A stretch of DNA of 64,000 nt, taken from the sequence record NC_028881.1, one strand, 5' to 3'. How positions within the stretch are numbered: position 1 is the first letter of the stretch; the number at the start of each line of letters is the position of its first letter. Origin of the DNA: Escherichia phage vb_EcoM-VR5. The position numbers were made by a program, and so were the translations under genes. The notes under the pieces were generated by a model. The model was not told the origin of the DNA. It made no database searches and was given only the letters and a program-made list of their open reading frames with translations. This document shows, in pieces, positions 3,012-60,293 of the stretch.

Positions 3012-4829
3012 TTACGACATCCAAGCCTTACGAAGCTGTGGGTCGTTTCCAAGGAGCATTTCGAACTGGTCTTTCCAATCTTCAGGTAATTGGACTACAT
3101 CAAATTTAGGGTCTTGAATCATTCGGCGGTATTCAGCTTTCTCAAGAGAACCGAGACCTTTGATATAACGAATAGAATGTTTAGGCAACTTATCCTTAGC
3201 TTCATTATAAGACGGAACATCATAGAACCATTCCTGTTCTTTACCAACCTGCGCAATAATTACCGGAGTTTTACAGAAACGAATTCGTCCCTGTTCGAAC
3301 AATTCAGGCCATTGGCTAAAGAAGGCTAATAACGAAGGATAAATCGAACCAGTACCATCCACATCAGCGTCAGTCATGATAGCGATATTATGATAGTTGG
3401 TTTTATTTGCAGGTTCGCCAATAATTAATCCTGTGATTGCACAGATATCAAATAGTTCCTTGTTCTTCATGATATCAGCAGCAGTCATACCCCAGGTATT
3501 CATAACCTTACCGCGTAATGGATAACCACCTTGGAGGTCTTTATTACGAACTTCAATGAAAGGACCCATTGCAGAATCACCTTCGGTTAAGAACAGAGTC
3601 GTATCAGCATCTTTGCCGTACATATTGGCTTTAATATGCTTATGGACCTTGGCTTTAGAAGCTTTCTTAGCAGCTTTAGTTTCGGCTGCCTTTTCAGCTG
3701 CTAATTTACGTGCTAAAGCGGCTTCGATAATAGGCATAATCAACCCATCAACTTTAAGAATAGCTTGAGCAATTTTCTTAGCATCAATTTGGATATGATT
3801 ACGAATCTCGCCAAATGGAGAGGTCAAACGTTCTTTAGTCTGGGAATCAAAACGCATATTGCTCATATCACGAATGAACATAACCATAGTAAGGCATTCT
3901 TTAACACGGGCCTTGGTTACTTCGATTCCACGATATTTCTTTTTAATACCTGGCAGAAGGTGCTCACAAATATCATCGAATACACATTCAACATGGTGGC
4001 CGCCATTCTTAGTATGGATATTGTTTACATACGTCAGTTGACGGAACCCGTCCGGAGAAGGAGTAAATGCCATCGAAACGTTATCAGTTTCTTGGATTAC
4101 AAAGTCTTCACCAAATTGCTTAGCATACTTTTTAAAGTTACCATCTACTTTTTTACCGTTAAAAGTAAATTGGATATCCGGATAAATTACGGCCAGTGTT
4201 TGAAGTCGGTCTAATGTAATATCCAGATAAATTTGTGACAGACTATTTTCTTCAAAATGATTAAAGTCTGGGGTGAATACAACCGAAGTACCTTTACCTT
4301 TAGATTTCTTGGTAGACCAACCTTTGTTTTCCATTCCATTGGAACAGTTAACTGTAATCTCATTCTCGCCATCAGAGGTGATGCCTGTGAACAAAACAGA
4401 GAAGATATTAGTTAAACTACTACCGACACCATTCATGCCGCCTGTCTTACGCTCTGCGTCATCTCCAAAGTTACCACCAGCCTTTGGAATAGTCCACGCA
4501 GCTACAGGGCCCGGAATCTGTTCACCGTTTTGATCGGTAACCATTGCTTGAGGAATACCACGGCCATTATCAGAAACTGAAACCTGGTTATTCTTAATTT
4601 GGACATCAATTTTATTTGCGAATTTAAAGCTTGTACGAATAGCTTCATCCACAGAGTTATCGATGATTTCGTCAATCAGTTTTACCAGCCCAGGAACATA
4701 GTTGACCTGAGTAAAATTACCGAACAGAAAACGTCCGTGAGCTTCATTAGCACTTGAACCGATATACATCCCACTACGTTTTTTGATATGTTCAATGTCG
4801 GACAGTACTTTAATTTCATTCTTAATCAT
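3012..4829 (-). CDS. 39: DNA topoisomerase II large subunit (GyrB-like; fused gene 39+60 form)
   Basis: 605-aa ORF; GHKL ATPase and TOPRIM-type motifs; RBS GAGGAAA; length fits fused 39/60 as in phages lacking the gene 60 bypass. Confidence 0.9.
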   Translation of the reverse strand: MIKNEIKVLSDIEHIKKRSGMYIGSSANEAHGRFLFGNFTQVNYVPGLVKLIDEIIDNSVDEAIRTSFKFANKIDVQIKNNQVSVSDNGRGIPQAMVTDQNGEQIPGPVAAWTIPKAGGNFGDDAERKTGGMNGVGSSLTNIFSVLFTGITSDGENEITVNCSNGMENKGWSTKKSKGKGTSVVFTPDFNHFEENSLSQIYLDITLDRLQTLAVIYPDIQFTFNGKKVDGNFKKYAKQFGEDFVIQETDNVSMAFTPSPDGFRQLTYVNNIHTKNGGHHVECVFDDICEHLLPGIKKKYRGIEVTKARVKECLTMVMFIRDMSNMRFDSQTKERLTSPFGEIRNHIQIDAKKIAQAILKVDGLIMPIIEAALARKLAAEKAAETKAAKKASKAKVHKHIKANMYGKDADTTLFLTEGDSAMGPFIEVRNKDLQGGYPLRGKVMNTWGMTAADIMKNKELFDICAITGLIIGEPANKTNYHNIAIMTDADVDGTGSIYPSLLAFFSQWPELFEQGRIRFCKTPVIIAQVGKEQEWFYDVPSYNEAKDKLPKHSIRYIKGLGSLEKAEYRRMIQDPKFDVVQLPEDWKDQFEMLLGNDPQLRKAWMS

Positions 4830-4896: not shown

Positions 4897-5164
4897 ATTC
4901 AAATCGAATGGTGGAGTTTTTGAACAGTAGCCCAGAGCACACGGTACCTTTAACAGTTTTACCTGTAGGACCGACAGCAATGAATCCTGTACGTTGGAAG
5001 TCATCTTCAGAACACCCAAACAAACTATAACCGGTGATTTGGATTTGCTCAAAACCATTGGCATTCAAAACCTTAGTAGCATTATCAGCGTCAGTACACC
5101 CGACCAGCGAAAAAGCAAGAACCAGTGCAGCAATAGTACGATTTACGTATTTCATATTTCTCAC
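4895..5164 (-). CDS. putative lipoprotein (89 aa)
   Basis: signal peptide with lipobox LVGC. Confidence 0.6.
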   Translation of the reverse strand: MRNMKYVNRTIAALVLAFSLVGCTDADNATKVLNANGFEQIQITGYSLFGCSEDDFQRTGFIAVGPTGKTVKGTVCSGLLFKNSTIRFE

Positions 5165-5334
5165 TTAAGCAGGTCGTAGAACCCGCCGTTAACATGTTTA
5201 GGAGCAGAGACTAGCCGAACAGCCAGCCGATGGCAATCAGGACAAACATCATTATCTCTTTCAGAGATTTTCTTGATTTTTTCGTATTCTTTCGCACAGT
5301 CTTCAGATTGGCATTTGTAATCATAAAGTGGCAT
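5161..5334 (-). CDS. FmdB-type zinc-ribbon protein (57 aa)
   Basis: hand-translated small ORF MPLYDYKCQSEDC...CPDCHRL with CxxC...CxxC; RBS AAGGAA; not in >=60 aa track. Confidence 0.5.
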   Translation of the reverse strand: MPLYDYKCQSEDCAKEYEKIKKISERDNDVCPDCHRLAVRLVSAPKHVNGGFYDLLK

Positions 5335-57066: not shown

Positions 57067-57320
57067 TTCACTTCCTCACCTGTTGCAATATCATATTCAA
57101 CTAAACGAAGACCATCTGTCCACCCTTGAACAGAGATATAGGTGGTCGGGTAAACCAGTTCTTTACCATTCCACTGACCGCCGTCCCAAACTTCTAGAAA
57201 GCTTTGTTCGCCTGGTCCATTAAACCATTCAACGAATCTTTTCAAGGCTGCATCAGAGCCTTCGATCGTCAGTTTAGACATATTTTTTCCAGTCATTAAC
57301 CATACGAACCTCTTGGTCAT
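57063..57320 (-). CDS. hypothetical protein (85 aa)
   Basis: ORF. Confidence 0.5.
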   Translation of the reverse strand: MTKRFVWLMTGKNMSKLTIEGSDAALKRFVEWFNGPGEQSFLEVWDGGQWNGKELVYPTTYISVQGWTDGLRLVEYDIATGEEVK

Positions 57321-57570
57321 ATGTCAGGAGGCTACGAGTTATAATACCCTTACACGGTCCTGAGATGAACTCGAGAGTGAAGTAAGGAACCTGTTTCATT
57401 AATCGGATACTTGGAGCATGGCATCTAAAACGAGAGCCCGTAAAGGGCCCTGACATGAACACGTATTCTAATGGGTAGAAATAAGCATATTCAAAATTTA
57501 TAGTAAGGTCTTCTCTTCGAACCTTACGTGAGAAATAGCAGAACTCAAAAAGCTCTTCATCAGTCATCAT
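57274..57570 (-). CDS. hypothetical protein (98 aa)
   Basis: ORF. Confidence 0.5.
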   Translation of the reverse strand: MMTDEELFEFCYFSRKVRREDLTINFEYAYFYPLEYVFMSGPFTGSRFRCHAPSIRLMKQVPYFTLEFISGPCKGIITRSLLTYDQEVRMVNDWKKYV

Positions 57571-58094
57571 TGCATTCCTATCACAAAGAACAAGGGCAGA
57601 GGTTTATTACCTTGGCACATAAATTTATTCATCATTACCTGGTAAGCTTCATAGAACTTATCCATCGCTGGAAGTCGCATAGGCTCTTCGATAATAATCA
57701 ATAATCGAGTAACAGATAATCCACGATACTTATGGAAGTTATCTTCGTCTAAAAATGAACGAACGGTATCATAGGCGATAAATCCAGGGCGTTCTACTTG
57801 AAGATGTGGTTGTGCCTTAGAAACCTGTTTTATTACATTACAGATTTCTCGTGAGCGATGTGAAGAACTTGACATAACAATAACATCATTACCCTTAGAG
57901 ACCCAATCAGCTGCGAACTGGGCAAGGGCACTTGTTTTACCTGTTTGACGACCGCCATCAAGCCTAAGAGTACCAAACTCTTGCATTCTTGAAGTGGGTT
58001 CATACCAGGTGTATTGGTCTGAGTCTAAACGTTCAATGGCGCGTTCAGCGAAGGCGTGCATTAAGGTTAGATAAATTGGAGTTAAAAATTTCAT
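57567..58094 (-). CDS. P-loop NTPase (175 aa)
   Basis: Walker A GGRQTGKTS. Confidence 0.6.
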   Translation of the reverse strand: MKFLTPIYLTLMHAFAERAIERLDSDQYTWYEPTSRMQEFGTLRLDGGRQTGKTSALAQFAADWVSKGNDVIVMSSSSHRSREICNVIKQVSKAQPHLQVERPGFIAYDTVRSFLDEDNFHKYRGLSVTRLLIIIEEPMRLPAMDKFYEAYQVMMNKFMCQGNKPLPLFFVIGMQ

Positions 58095-58226
58095 AGTTGT
58101 CTCTTAGTAGGGGCCATTCCTTGGCACATAATTCATCCCTTTCTGCATTTACCCATTACCGCACTTGGGCTCGACCTTATTACAGGTTGGTGGGAGTCCC
58201 TCAGTATTGAGGTCCAGGTTGCTCCC

Positions 58227-58643
58227 TTATGCATAAATCGCCTTACTGTAATATTTATACCAGGTAGGGCGTTGTGCAATTTTTTCGTCTAAACGGGCCT
58301 GTGATATAACGATAGAAGCTTCATGGGGGATATAATCACCACGGAATTCCTGAGGAATATCACTAATATCCTGGACTGTAGTATCCTTGATATTAAACCC
58401 ACGTTTTAGACATTCGTCTATAAGCTCAATTTGACGTTTACGTAAGAACTCGAGCTTATCGTAAAAGAATGTAACATGACCTGTGCCAAGGATAAAAGTA
58501 GGACTGATTTTAAAATCACGAACCCGTTTACCATTAGCAACATGCTTACGAACTGCACCAAAAACACGTGGTAATTCACGATATTCGGCCATTAAGTGTT
58601 GGTCAGCCAATTCAGATACTAAAGTAAGGTTGATACGAGTCAT
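58227..58643 (-). CDS. denV: endonuclease V (pyrimidine dimer DNA glycosylase)
   Basis: 138-aa ORF, same length as T4 DenV; N-terminus MTRINLTLV. Confidence 0.88.
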
Positions 58644-58658
58644 TTTAATCTCCTGTAG

Positions 58659-58698
58659 TTGATAGGTCTATAGTATCATACCTACAGGAGATGTAAAC
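58659..58698 (-). promoter_or_regulatory. early promoter family member with SD/anti-SD inverted repeat (upstream of denV)
   Basis: atctcctgtag / ctacaggagat flanking TGATACTATAGACCTATCAAC. Confidence 0.55.
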
Positions 58699-58707
58699 TA
58701 CTATGAA

Positions 58708-59007
58708 CTAGAAAGAACCAGAGCCTTTAATTGTGTTCTGGCGTCCTTTATTTTCTACTTCAGAGTGGTCGATTTCGTAAGCTTGTGCTACACCAAAGGA
58801 TTTTTTAATTTTGGCCAACGACCCTTTAGAAATAACAATGTTAAAGGTATTGCCTTTAGAAAAATCTACCAAATCTACAGTAACGCCGTTATTGGTTAAA
58901 CTATTAACAATAGCATCAACATATTGTTGGTCTAAAGTTCCCTGAACGCCGATTTGAAAAGCTTTAGGTGCTTTAGCTTCAGTGATAAATTCTTGATATG
59001 TTTTCAT
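58708..59007 (-). CDS. ipII: internal protein II
   Basis: 99-aa ORF with N-terminal capsid targeting sequence MKTYQEFITEA. Confidence 0.7.
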   Translation of the reverse strand: MKTYQEFITEAKAPKAFQIGVQGTLDQQYVDAIVNSLTNNGVTVDLVDFSKGNTFNIVISKGSLAKIKKSFGVAQAYEIDHSEVENKGRQNTIKGSGSF

Positions 59008-59140
59008 TTCAAATCCTAGCTGGTTTTAATTAAAAGCCATTCCGTGGCTCATTAGTTAAGGTTAATCCCTTCCTGCAGTACCTGTTCGAGTGCTCGGGCC
59101 CTCCTCATAGAGGTTAGACCCTGTTAGACTTTATTAGGAA

Positions 59141-59710
59141 TTAACGGGCTGCATTAGCAACAGCGTAAGCGTACTGAATATTAGCGTCTTTAAACTTACC
59201 TTTAGAGGTATCTATTTCTGCCTTAAAGCCGCCTTTAGTCATAACATCGGCAAATTCTTTACGGAAAGCCATTGCATCAAGACCTTTCCATGATGATTTA
59301 TGCTTGGCAAATTCAAGACCTGCGAAGTTGACAGCTTTAGCCAATTTATTATCAATAGCCCATTTACCGGCTTTAGGCACAAACTTCGGGCCCTTCTGTT
59401 TAGAGAACAGTTTTAAATTCCAGCGGCGAAGGTCCGAATCAGCTTTAACAAATTCGGAGTCTAAATTACTAGCAACAACATCGTCAATATGAGCGAATTT
59501 AAGTCCGTCAACTTCAATATTTAGGTCGTTACGCCAGCGAAGTCCTTCCCAGGCGAAAGCTTTAAAGTCAGAAGCTTTTGTAGCTAAGTACCGTTCAATA
59601 GGAGCTGTTTTAGCGTCAAAACCGTTTCCTCGGTAGGTCCACTCATCTTTGTTAATGCCTTGGGCTTTTCCTACAGAAGCTTCGGCGATAAATTCTTTAT
59701 ATGTTTTCAT
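59141..59710 (-). CDS. ipIII: internal protein III
   Basis: 189-aa ORF with MKTYKEFIAEA capsid targeting sequence. Confidence 0.7.
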   Translation of the reverse strand: MKTYKEFIAEASVGKAQGINKDEWTYRGNGFDAKTAPIERYLATKASDFKAFAWEGLRWRNDLNIEVDGLKFAHIDDVVASNLDSEFVKADSDLRRWNLKLFSKQKGPKFVPKAGKWAIDNKLAKAVNFAGLEFAKHKSSWKGLDAMAFRKEFADVMTKGGFKAEIDTSKGKFKDANIQYAYAVANAAR

Positions 59711-59798: not shown

Positions 59799-60293
59799 TT
59801 ATAGATTTTTATACGCGTCCCAAGTGCCAGTTCTAAACGTTGCAATGACTCGCTTAGCTCGGTTGGGGGTCTGTTTGTACCAACGAGATTGCGCTAGGTT
59901 AACTGCGGCCTCATCCCAACGTTTTTGTTGGAGCATACGAAGAGAGTTAGTAAATCCTGCTACACCAGCTTCACCCATTTGGAAGACCATATTAATTAGT
60001 GCGCAACGACGAACTTCGTCAAGCACATCATAAACAGGTTTCAATTTAGGATTACGCAAAATAGCCCTACGAGCATTTTCCACTGAACGATTAAAGAGTT
60101 GTTCTGCTTCAGTCATTGTAATACGACCATTACAAACTCGACCCATAAGTTTATCAAGTTCAGCACGAGCAACATCTTTAGAAGGATTCTTGGTTATCAA
60201 TTGGCCGATGCCAATAGTCCAATAACCTTCGGTGTCTTTATAAAGATTTAAATCAAGACCTTCGTCTTGACGTAACATATCAAAAATATCCAT
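59799..60293 (-). CDS. e: lysozyme (endolysin, T4 e)
   Basis: 164-aa ORF; catalytic-region motifs of T4 lysozyme ([11 protein letters not shown], ...[10 protein letters not shown]...[10 protein letters not shown]). Confidence 0.92.

Follow-up and report, generated by a model that had tools for sequence, protein, structure and literature searches.

The nearest precedents for the element described here are RNA C and RNA D of phage T4, the species 1 and 2 stable RNAs of its tRNA region, which are small structured RNAs that are cotranscribed and then processed out. According to a 2010 review, no T4 riboswitch or trans-acting small RNA had been functionally characterised, and RNA C and RNA D had no known role (PMC3014915). 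Here, we analyzed a 64,000-nucleotide (nt) stretch of Escherichia phage vb_EcoM-VR5 (record NC_028881.1; hereafter the window), a T4-like myovirus, and found that the entire spacer between denV and the homologue of T4 vs.8 (element 1; 58095–58226) is an unannotated pseudoknotted RNA whose core is almost identical in approximately 1000 phages of several unrelated families, T4 included. A second spacer, between ipIII and an internal head protein gene (element 2; 59008–59140), holds a decayed, core-less paralogue. Both elements and their parts lie on the minus strand. Like RNA C and RNA D, the element is a small structured phage RNA, and an RNA D-like motif occurs in the same tRNA-region arrays as the element in the Phapecoctavirus-like phage PsgM04F (locus L003; L numbers denote compared loci) and in a 46-kb contig (L037). 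Unlike them, it shows no sequence similarity to either RNA (blastn against the window and all loci gave nothing at the element), and in T4-like phages it is part of a messenger RNA, with the tRNA cluster about 6 kb away. We found no report of a stable RNA from the element region in the literature searched, and no prior description of the element in the searchable literature.

Other known systems share individual features with it. Hepatitis delta virus (HDV)-like, or theta, ribozymes fold into a nested double pseudoknot, are found beside phage tRNA genes and can dispense with their P4 domain. The regulator CsrA recognizes the consensus A(N)GGA. Promoter early stem-loop (PeSL) cassettes are intergenic modules of the T4-type hyperplastic region, proposed as recombination sites (PMC2839356, PMC4122927); each combines a sigma-70-type early promoter (TTTACW-N17-TAYWAT in T4/PST) with one stem-loop (PMC4122927).

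Results

We first describe the extent of the family. A blastn search with element 1 matched 968 phage records; in 496, the alignment spanned 80% or more of the element. The T4 copy was located at 64808–64948, again between denV and vs.8. (Our T4 locus, L001, covers this region at 1511–1668, corresponding to about 64781–64938 of NC_000866.4.) A family hidden Markov model (HMM) built only from other phages recovered element 1 with E = 8.7e-34 in a search of the whole window. Outside the T4 group, a core of about 45 nt (CCUGUAAUAAGGUCGAGCC…GCGGUAAU) was approximately 90–97% identical in Vequintavirus JES2013 (L002) and in PsgM04F, and it also occurred in IMG/VR contigs of 38–47 kb and in metagenome contigs. 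The N4-like Klebsiella phage KpCHEMY26 (L026) matched PsgM04F at 84% identity over 139 nt, core included. Of 64 loci with a match, 62 carried a single core.

The genomic context differed from that in the window. In every non-T4 phage whose neighbours were checked, the element lay inside or beside a tRNA cluster, on the same strand as the tRNA genes. In one metagenome contig (L063), it formed the 111 nt separating a tRNA from a weak tRNA-like match; directly 5′ of the element, ARAGORN predicted a tRNA with a four-base anticodon (ctgg) at 3587–3669. In JES2013, a promoter-like site preceded a non-coding stretch of about 270 nt holding the element, and the next gene had a separate strong promoter.

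The family appears to be confined to phages. An exact-pattern scan for the core found none in 185,579 GTDB representative bacterial and archaeal genomes, and blastn gave no match to the core in 5426 Escherichia coli genomes at E ≤ 10. Mimicry of an E. coli sequence by the core, which we had considered, was dropped in view of these two results. None of the 4227 models of Rfam 15 reached its gathering score anywhere in the window, neither element was matched at E ≤ 10, and the element was likewise unmatched at E ≤ 1 in six loci from other phage groups. ARAGORN found no tRNA or transfer-messenger RNA gene in the window, and the Rfam tRNA model had no match at the element.

The first-pass annotation, which was made from the window alone, had offered structured RNA as one of its readings and covariance analysis across related phages as the check. 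For element 1 the check bears this out: the family is large, its core is nearly invariant and its helices covary. A covariance model of the core (R1) matched 58143–58194 with 67.5 bits (E = 4e-19), the sole match in the window below E = 0.7 with filters off; scores in other loci ranged from 35.7 to 73.1 bits, standard copies scoring 45–73. We aligned 37 distinct core sequences from all groups with MAFFT, without gaps, over 52 columns, 21 of which were invariant. The structure tested on this alignment consists of a closing helix, Pc (58188–58191 pairing with 58155 and 58151–58153), from which a single, nearly invariant G bulges out, and the hairpins Pa and Pb. Pa is ACCU-GUAAUA-AGGU (58174–58187); in Pb, CC (58168–58169) pairs with GG (58159–58160) across 7 nt. 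The junction bases are invariant. In this structure 93.8% of alignment cells were paired, and the covariation score was 0.306 compared with 0.077 in shuffled alignments, a value reached by 0/500 shuffles, while slid partners scored at most 0.086. All four Pc pairs had changed on both sides; the pair adjoining Pa (columns 7–40) occurred as A-U, U-A, C-G and U-G, and pair 6–42 as C-G, U-A, G-C and A-U. Pairing of the Pa loop (UGUAA) with a downstream UUACA was feasible in some classes only and was dropped.

Upstream of the core lies a hairpin domain (58192–58226) in which helix P1 encloses hairpin P3 (58199–58212) and the internal loop CAACCUGGA. P1 is present in every class, and its 3′ strand abuts Pc. 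In the window it pairs GGGAG (58222–58226) with CUCCC (58192–58196), a compensatory change relative to GGGAA/UUCCC in T4. Across 21 representatives we found 14 distinct complementary pairs of P1 strands, assigned by hand. P3 also varied in a compensatory manner in locus L053, where CCUCAU/AUGAGG became CCUUAU/AUAAGG.

The first 10 nt or so inside P1 are complementary to about 14 nt following Pc. This putative helix, P2, would create a pseudoknot, with the strands following one another as in a nested double pseudoknot. In an alignment of 23 RB69/Dhaka-type sequences, unbiased and comprising 27 pairs with P2 included, 41 cells were doubly changed compared with 9.3 in shuffles, and the covariation score was 0.230 (shuffles, 0.092); of the six P2 pairs, four showed double changes, making P2 well supported in this class. 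A partner-swap test, with the 5′ partner restricted to a position-defined segment of 10–12 nt, gave native pairs a mean of −5.9 kcal/mol and non-native pairs −3.3 kcal/mol, which 0/20,000 permutations matched. The window itself has a candidate P2 5′ strand, CCUGGA (58213–58218), of which CUG alone can pair, with the CAG inside 58140–58146.

T4-like phages carry a further module, AUGGA(C/U)…A(U/C)G(U/C)GCCA(N)GGAA(U/C)GGCCC, located 3′ of the core and 5′ of the following ribosome-binding site; it is absent from non-T4 versions of the element. This 3′ module (58113–58147 in element 1) contains both of the sequence blocks that the first-pass annotation had seen in the ORF-free (open reading frame-free) spacers at 58095–58226 and 59008–59140. 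The spacers lie where it placed them, and the blocks are exact: TGCAG(A/G)AAGGGAT at 58135–58147 and 59065–59077, and GCCA(A/C)GGAATGGC at 58113–58125 and 59036–59048. The annotation had made their conservation in related genomes a test of its proposal, and the module with both blocks was kept in 31 distinct T4-like variants, with C/U changes only. Both GGA triplets were invariant in these variants, the one within the first block and the one in the loop of the predicted 4-bp hairpin GCCA-AGGAA-UGGC (58113–58125); the A-U pair of this hairpin was broken in 5/31. RNAalifold favored pairing of the module with the core over the module hairpin, possible in 99–100% of cells and with changes all of the G-U to G-C kind. 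The module-core duplex was no more stable than shuffled controls, 36% of which equalled it, and we consider it a minor possibility. The module is the part that survives in element 2, which suggests that it serves the downstream gene, probably by acting on it in cis.

We then compared the two elements of the window, which had been proposed as paired homologous copies. Their similarity is real, but they are not equivalent, as the family core is present in element 1 only. The local alignment score of 30 was reached by 1/2000 dinucleotide shuffles, and the best unrelated 133-nt segment in the same 64 kb scored 27, slightly lower. The similarity is modest and limited to the 3′ third; further upstream the two are about 55–60% alike in a forced alignment. 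In element 2, the family HMM matched the 3′ part only (E = 0.0097, whole-window search), and the R1 core model had no match at E ≤ 10 with filters off. No relatives of element 2 were found in INPHARED by blastn or in IMG/VR by scanning. What it retains is a 5′ boundary, TTCCTAATAAAG (59129–59140), which includes the P1 5′ strand AAAG, and a 3′ module (59036–59077) comprising the first block (59065–59077) and the hairpin GCCA-CGGAA-UGGC (59036–59048). The same boundary sequence starts the RB69/Dhaka-type element and opens the elements of loci L015 and L028. In L015, an intact element precedes the orthologue of the internal head protein gene that follows element 2. Relative to this intact copy, element 2 has kept the 5′ boundary and the 3′ hairpin with its trailer (…TTTAATTAAAAC…GGATTT.AAATGAAAAC), while about 55 nt, core included, have been scrambled or lost.

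The origin of the pair is illustrated by the Klebsiella Jiaodavirus pzk-kv6-1 (L028), in which an element, an ipII-like internal-protein gene, a second element and vs.8 follow one another with both cores intact (2008–2059 and 2531–2582). From this two-copy layout, we conclude that shuffling of an internal-protein cassette at the conserved element gave rise to the pair in the window and left element 2 as a paralogue that has decayed. The suggestion that such a region might be a duplication remnant was therefore right as to the remnant; the thing duplicated was the RNA element and not a gene end. Another locus with two cores (L036; 5199–5250 and 5088–5137) has a shortened, divergent copy in tandem after the first.

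Element 1 also marks a change of ancestry. The denV gene of the window is 95% identical to that of T4 and 89% identical to that of phage AnYang, whereas for the vs.8 homologue the corresponding values are about 60–62% (T4) and 88–95% (Dhakavirus AnYang). Relatedness thus switches inside element 1, making it a crossover point. Its conservation would be enough to account for such a role, which is not necessarily its function. Relative to T4, the element is not more conserved than its flanking genes (denV 95%, element overall 74% identity); conservation above that of the flanking genes holds for the core only.

These comparisons bear on the annotation of T4 itself. T4 vs.8 is annotated as 219 amino acids (aa), with a start codon that falls inside the conserved element. 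In the phrog_1488 profile and in all relatives, the protein begins at an MK/RxFLT start located about 44 codons 3′ of the annotated one. Since the profile and all homologues start downstream, the 5′ extension of T4 vs.8 is very probably not coding, and both it and its copies in many phage records look like an annotation artefact.

Discussion

Taken together, we consider element 1 very probably a member of a conserved structured RNA family rather than a source of peptides. A nearly unchanged 45-nt core with covarying helices, spread across unrelated phage families, is the signature of an RNA that contacts a conserved host or phage partner. The explanation we favor, and hold to be somewhat better than even, is a processed, factor-binding small RNA to which T4-like phages have added a cis-acting module of the 5′ untranslated region (5′ UTR). 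The trans-acting, factor-binding mechanism in particular is a more tentative proposal, which we think rather less probable than its negation. On this view, many virulent enterobacterial phages share a pseudoknotted non-coding RNA module, usually in single copy, and element 1 is its representative in the window. The module would begin with a 5′ hairpin domain that varies (P1, in some cases with P3) and continue with the core, the two domains being locked together by P2. It would be made within a longer transcript, here an early denV–vs.8 message from a promoter upstream of denV, and would fold independently; a factor shared by these hosts or phages could then bind to its invariant junction and loops. 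In other phage families, tRNA-processing nucleases may release it, like T4 RNA C and RNA D. Because the element lies among tRNA genes in those families, a link to tRNA biology is our first guess, and the bound factor may be tied to tRNA metabolism or to tRNA-targeting defence. The 3′ module of T4-like phages, with its two invariant GGA motifs ahead of the next ribosome-binding site, would influence the next gene in cis. Element 2 would be a second copy that came with an internal-protein cassette recombined in at the conserved element, its core having decayed since.

Several observations weigh against this account. All support for P2 comes from the position-restricted partner-swap test and the fixed-column counts; a looser test that used the whole interior of P1 showed no signal (p = 0.6). 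P2 is also weak in the window, T4 and the T4-type class, where it comprises only 3 bp (CUG/CAG), and the P1 and P2 strands were assigned by hand across classes. In the core, Pa shows a single A-U to G-C swap and Pb never varies; as both hardly vary, covariation cannot confirm them, and the evidence for them is mainly their conservation and the shortened divergent copy in L036. Folding energies of the single sequences do not stand out (element 1, z = +0.79; element 2, z = −0.54). Shuffle statistics overstate independence because the sequences are related. As to mechanism, we infer it from context, and the invariable position of the element immediately 5′ of a start codon in T4-like phages fits a purely cis role as well as a trans one.

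A more far-reaching possibility, which we regard as doubtful, is that the element represents an undescribed class of phage RNA, present in T4 too, in which a pseudoknotted fold presents a near-invariant three-way-junction core. Horizontal transfer would have carried it into at least five groups of virulent enterobacterial phages, and it would act in trans on a conserved host target, or else be a new ligand-binding or catalytic RNA. Candidate targets would be a tRNA-directed enzyme or a defence nuclease, for which the RNA would serve as a decoy or an inhibitor. The Pa loop contains CUGUAA(A/U), the anticodon-loop sequence of tRNA-Tyr. That the element is functionally a new class is likewise conceivable, though we would not expect it.

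The proximity of the element to start codons raises the alternative that it, or at least its 3′ module, is a cis-regulatory leader, a 5′-UTR sensor or operator that governs translation or stability of the vs.8 or internal-protein message through a protein or small molecule. In all T4-like phages examined, 20–60 nt separate the end of the element from a start codon, the two invariant GGA motifs stand about 20 nt apart with one in a hairpin loop, the 3′ module is what element 2 has kept, and its possible pairing with the core extends to nearly all alignment cells with exclusively G-U to G-C changes. There is a likeness to three-way-junction riboswitch aptamers in the closing helix with two hairpins and near-invariant junction and loop bases, and, in T4-like phages only, in the short platform that follows ahead of the ribosome-binding site. 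Yet the core is equally conserved where tRNAs, other RNA units or a separate promoter follow instead of a gene, and the downstream gene varies even among T4-like phages: instead of a constant gene class, vs.8, two internal-protein genes, tRNAs, RNA units or an independent promoter follow. The element, unlike known riboswitches, occurs between tRNA genes and has no Rfam riboswitch match. The conserved module does not include the ribosome-binding site, the module-core pairing is matched by the 36% of shuffles noted above, and no terminator is present. Within this alternative, CsrA is a candidate binder. As in CsrA leaders and sponge RNAs, the module has what read as two A(N)GGA motifs, AAAGGGA (AAAUGGA in T4) and CCA-AGGAA-UGG, which fit a pattern of at least two motifs 10–60 nt apart with one in a loop, a feature of sequence only. 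CsrA leaders differ in that the module has just two such sites, neither overlapping the downstream Shine-Dalgarno sequence, and is absent from non-T4 versions. On balance, we consider a purely cis-regulatory leader unlikely. A related idea of the first-pass annotation was that short ORFs preceded by Shine-Dalgarno sequences encode leader peptides that regulate the next gene by coupling or attenuation. The predicted mini-ORFs exist, MCQGMAPTKRQL at 58091–58129, with a stop overlapping the vs.8 start codon (ATGA), and MSHGMAFN at 59026–59052, and among the 31 T4-like variants an ATG follows a GGA-containing purine stretch by 6–8 nt in 27, with an ATGA overlap in nine, the window included. In the other four, however, the start is ACG; the frame relative to the next gene is 0, 1 or 2; the length is 8–28 codons, or the ORF is fused with the next gene; and the conserved codons are limited to the 6–7 that coincide with the RNA hairpin, where U to C changes fit constraint at the RNA level. 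As all three frames occur, ATGA overlaps are the automatic result of the one frame in three (frame 2). No terminator-like site or hairpin was found in the minus-strand spacers examined. With start, frame and length variable and a terminator lacking, the leader-peptide reading is not supported and has very little probability in our estimate; the mini-ORFs are incidental readings of conserved RNA sequence.

Two further alternatives concern what the conserved sequence does as DNA or as a catalyst. It might be a recombination site or cassette boundary analogous to PeSL, kept for shuffling internal-protein genes and devoid of RNA function. In keeping with this, T4-like DNA gives way to Dhakavirus-like DNA at element 1, copies lie on either side of internal-protein genes in both L028 and the window, and the region is known to be hyperplastic (PMC4122927); like PeSLs, the element is a conserved intergenic module at the boundaries of shuffled genes. 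Any conserved island in variable DNA serves as a crossover, so the recombination evidence does not discriminate between a DNA and an RNA reading. Fixed-column covariation of base pairs, with a pseudoknot, is unexpected for a DNA site. A further point against this reading is that in unrelated phages, which lack internal-protein genes, the element keeps to the strand of the tRNA genes. The element is also far longer than a PeSL, pseudoknotted and common to non-T4 phage families. Promoter hexamers were found in neither element; the sole sites in minus-strand spacers lie in the spacer upstream of denV (58644–58707), and it is this spacer, not either element, that is the PeSL-type site of the region. 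A DNA-only role thus seems improbable, if slightly less so than leader peptides. Alternatively, the element could be an HDV-like (theta) ribozyme that cuts itself out of polycistronic transcripts. It adjoins tRNAs, and its putative strand order, P1-P2-P3-P1′-[core as P4]-P2′, resembles that of these ribozymes, with a P2 that has only 3 bp in the window and a hand-curated assignment across classes. Nevertheless, Rfam ribozyme models remained unmatched even at E ≤ 1–10. The linker where the catalytic C should lie is not conserved (AAAUG in the window; AUA, AU or CU in Vequintavirus; UUUACAU elsewhere), and in several members (AUA, AU, AAAUG) it has no C. P3, a 5–6-bp hairpin with a variable loop or inserted hairpin, is long and variable where HDV-like ribozymes have 3 bp and a conserved loop, P1 lacks a conserved initial G, and the invariant bases are concentrated in the equivalent of P4, the domain dispensable in those ribozymes. 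Self-cleavage is the least probable of these readings.

The element resides in a non-essential region of the best-studied phage, and hence is directly testable. The findings also correct an annotation, since the 5′ extension of T4 vs.8 and its copies are probably not coding, and they offer an explanation of local genome shuffling, in which crossovers occur at conserved RNA modules, the movement of internal-protein cassettes duplicates these modules, and one copy can then decay.

Additional observations on the locus and its relatives

The region from e to vs.8 consists entirely of minus-strand genes. The lysozyme gene e (59799–60293) and ipIII (59141–59710) precede element 2. The gene 3′ of element 2 (58708–59007) encodes a 99-aa internal head protein of phrog_2667; it had been labelled ipII, but is not an orthologue of T4 ipII. 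The PeSL-type spacer and denV (58227–58643; Pfam Pyr_excise match) follow, the latter lying 5′ of element 1. The vs.8 homologue (57567–58094), the next gene 3′ of element 1, encodes a 175-aa P-loop protein, residues 1–175 of which align with positions 1–177 of the phrog_1488 profile (E = 3.8e-69). Element 1 has a G+C content of 50% (54% in its first 78 nt) compared with 39% in the whole window.

A 13-nt piece of the elements had been noted inside the 3′ end of vs.8. It does recur there, at 57610–57622 and not at 57611–57623 as first given. The expectation is 0.08 for one word, and as about 0.2 is estimated after allowing for some 120 possible element words, the recurrence is probably due to chance. 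Further downstream, a model of group II intron domain V/VI gave a sub-threshold match at 57475–57557, minus strand, within a 98-aa ORF (57274–57570); it scored 27.6 bits, the gathering score being 40 (E = 0.0096 in a 2.5-kb search), and is probably also a chance match. No tRNA genes were found across the 64-kb window, although it includes the e–ipIII–denV region, which in T4 is a few kb from the tRNA cluster.

In the spacer upstream of denV, TTTACA-16-TACTAT (58697–58670) resembles an early promoter and has a TG extension. A weaker promoter match (58670–58642) overlaps it, and a 9-bp inverted repeat, CTCCTGTAG…CTACAGGAG (58650–58690), overlaps the promoter-like site. The spacer sequence is almost the same in T4 at this position.

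The RNA D-like motif consists of a hairpin followed by UAAGUCGUCGNACUGAU, with the 3′ end GGCGCACCA in L037, and adjoins tRNA genes (L037, about 2340–2455; L003, 1182–1217). As it occurs in both L037 and PsgM04F, RNA D too belongs to a family spread across unrelated phages. Upstream of the tRNAs in these and other genomes, we also observed arrays of small RNA units, each enclosed by a common long stem (GUGCUCUUAUCGUUGUG … CACAACA..AAGAGCAU). They were present in 46-kb contigs (L037, 1930–2330; L055, reverse strand, 4900–5230), in the N4-like Klebsiella phage (L026, 1180–1345) and in PsgM04F (L003, 1440–1700). The units include the element and a tRNA-like unit, and the stems look like processing stems.

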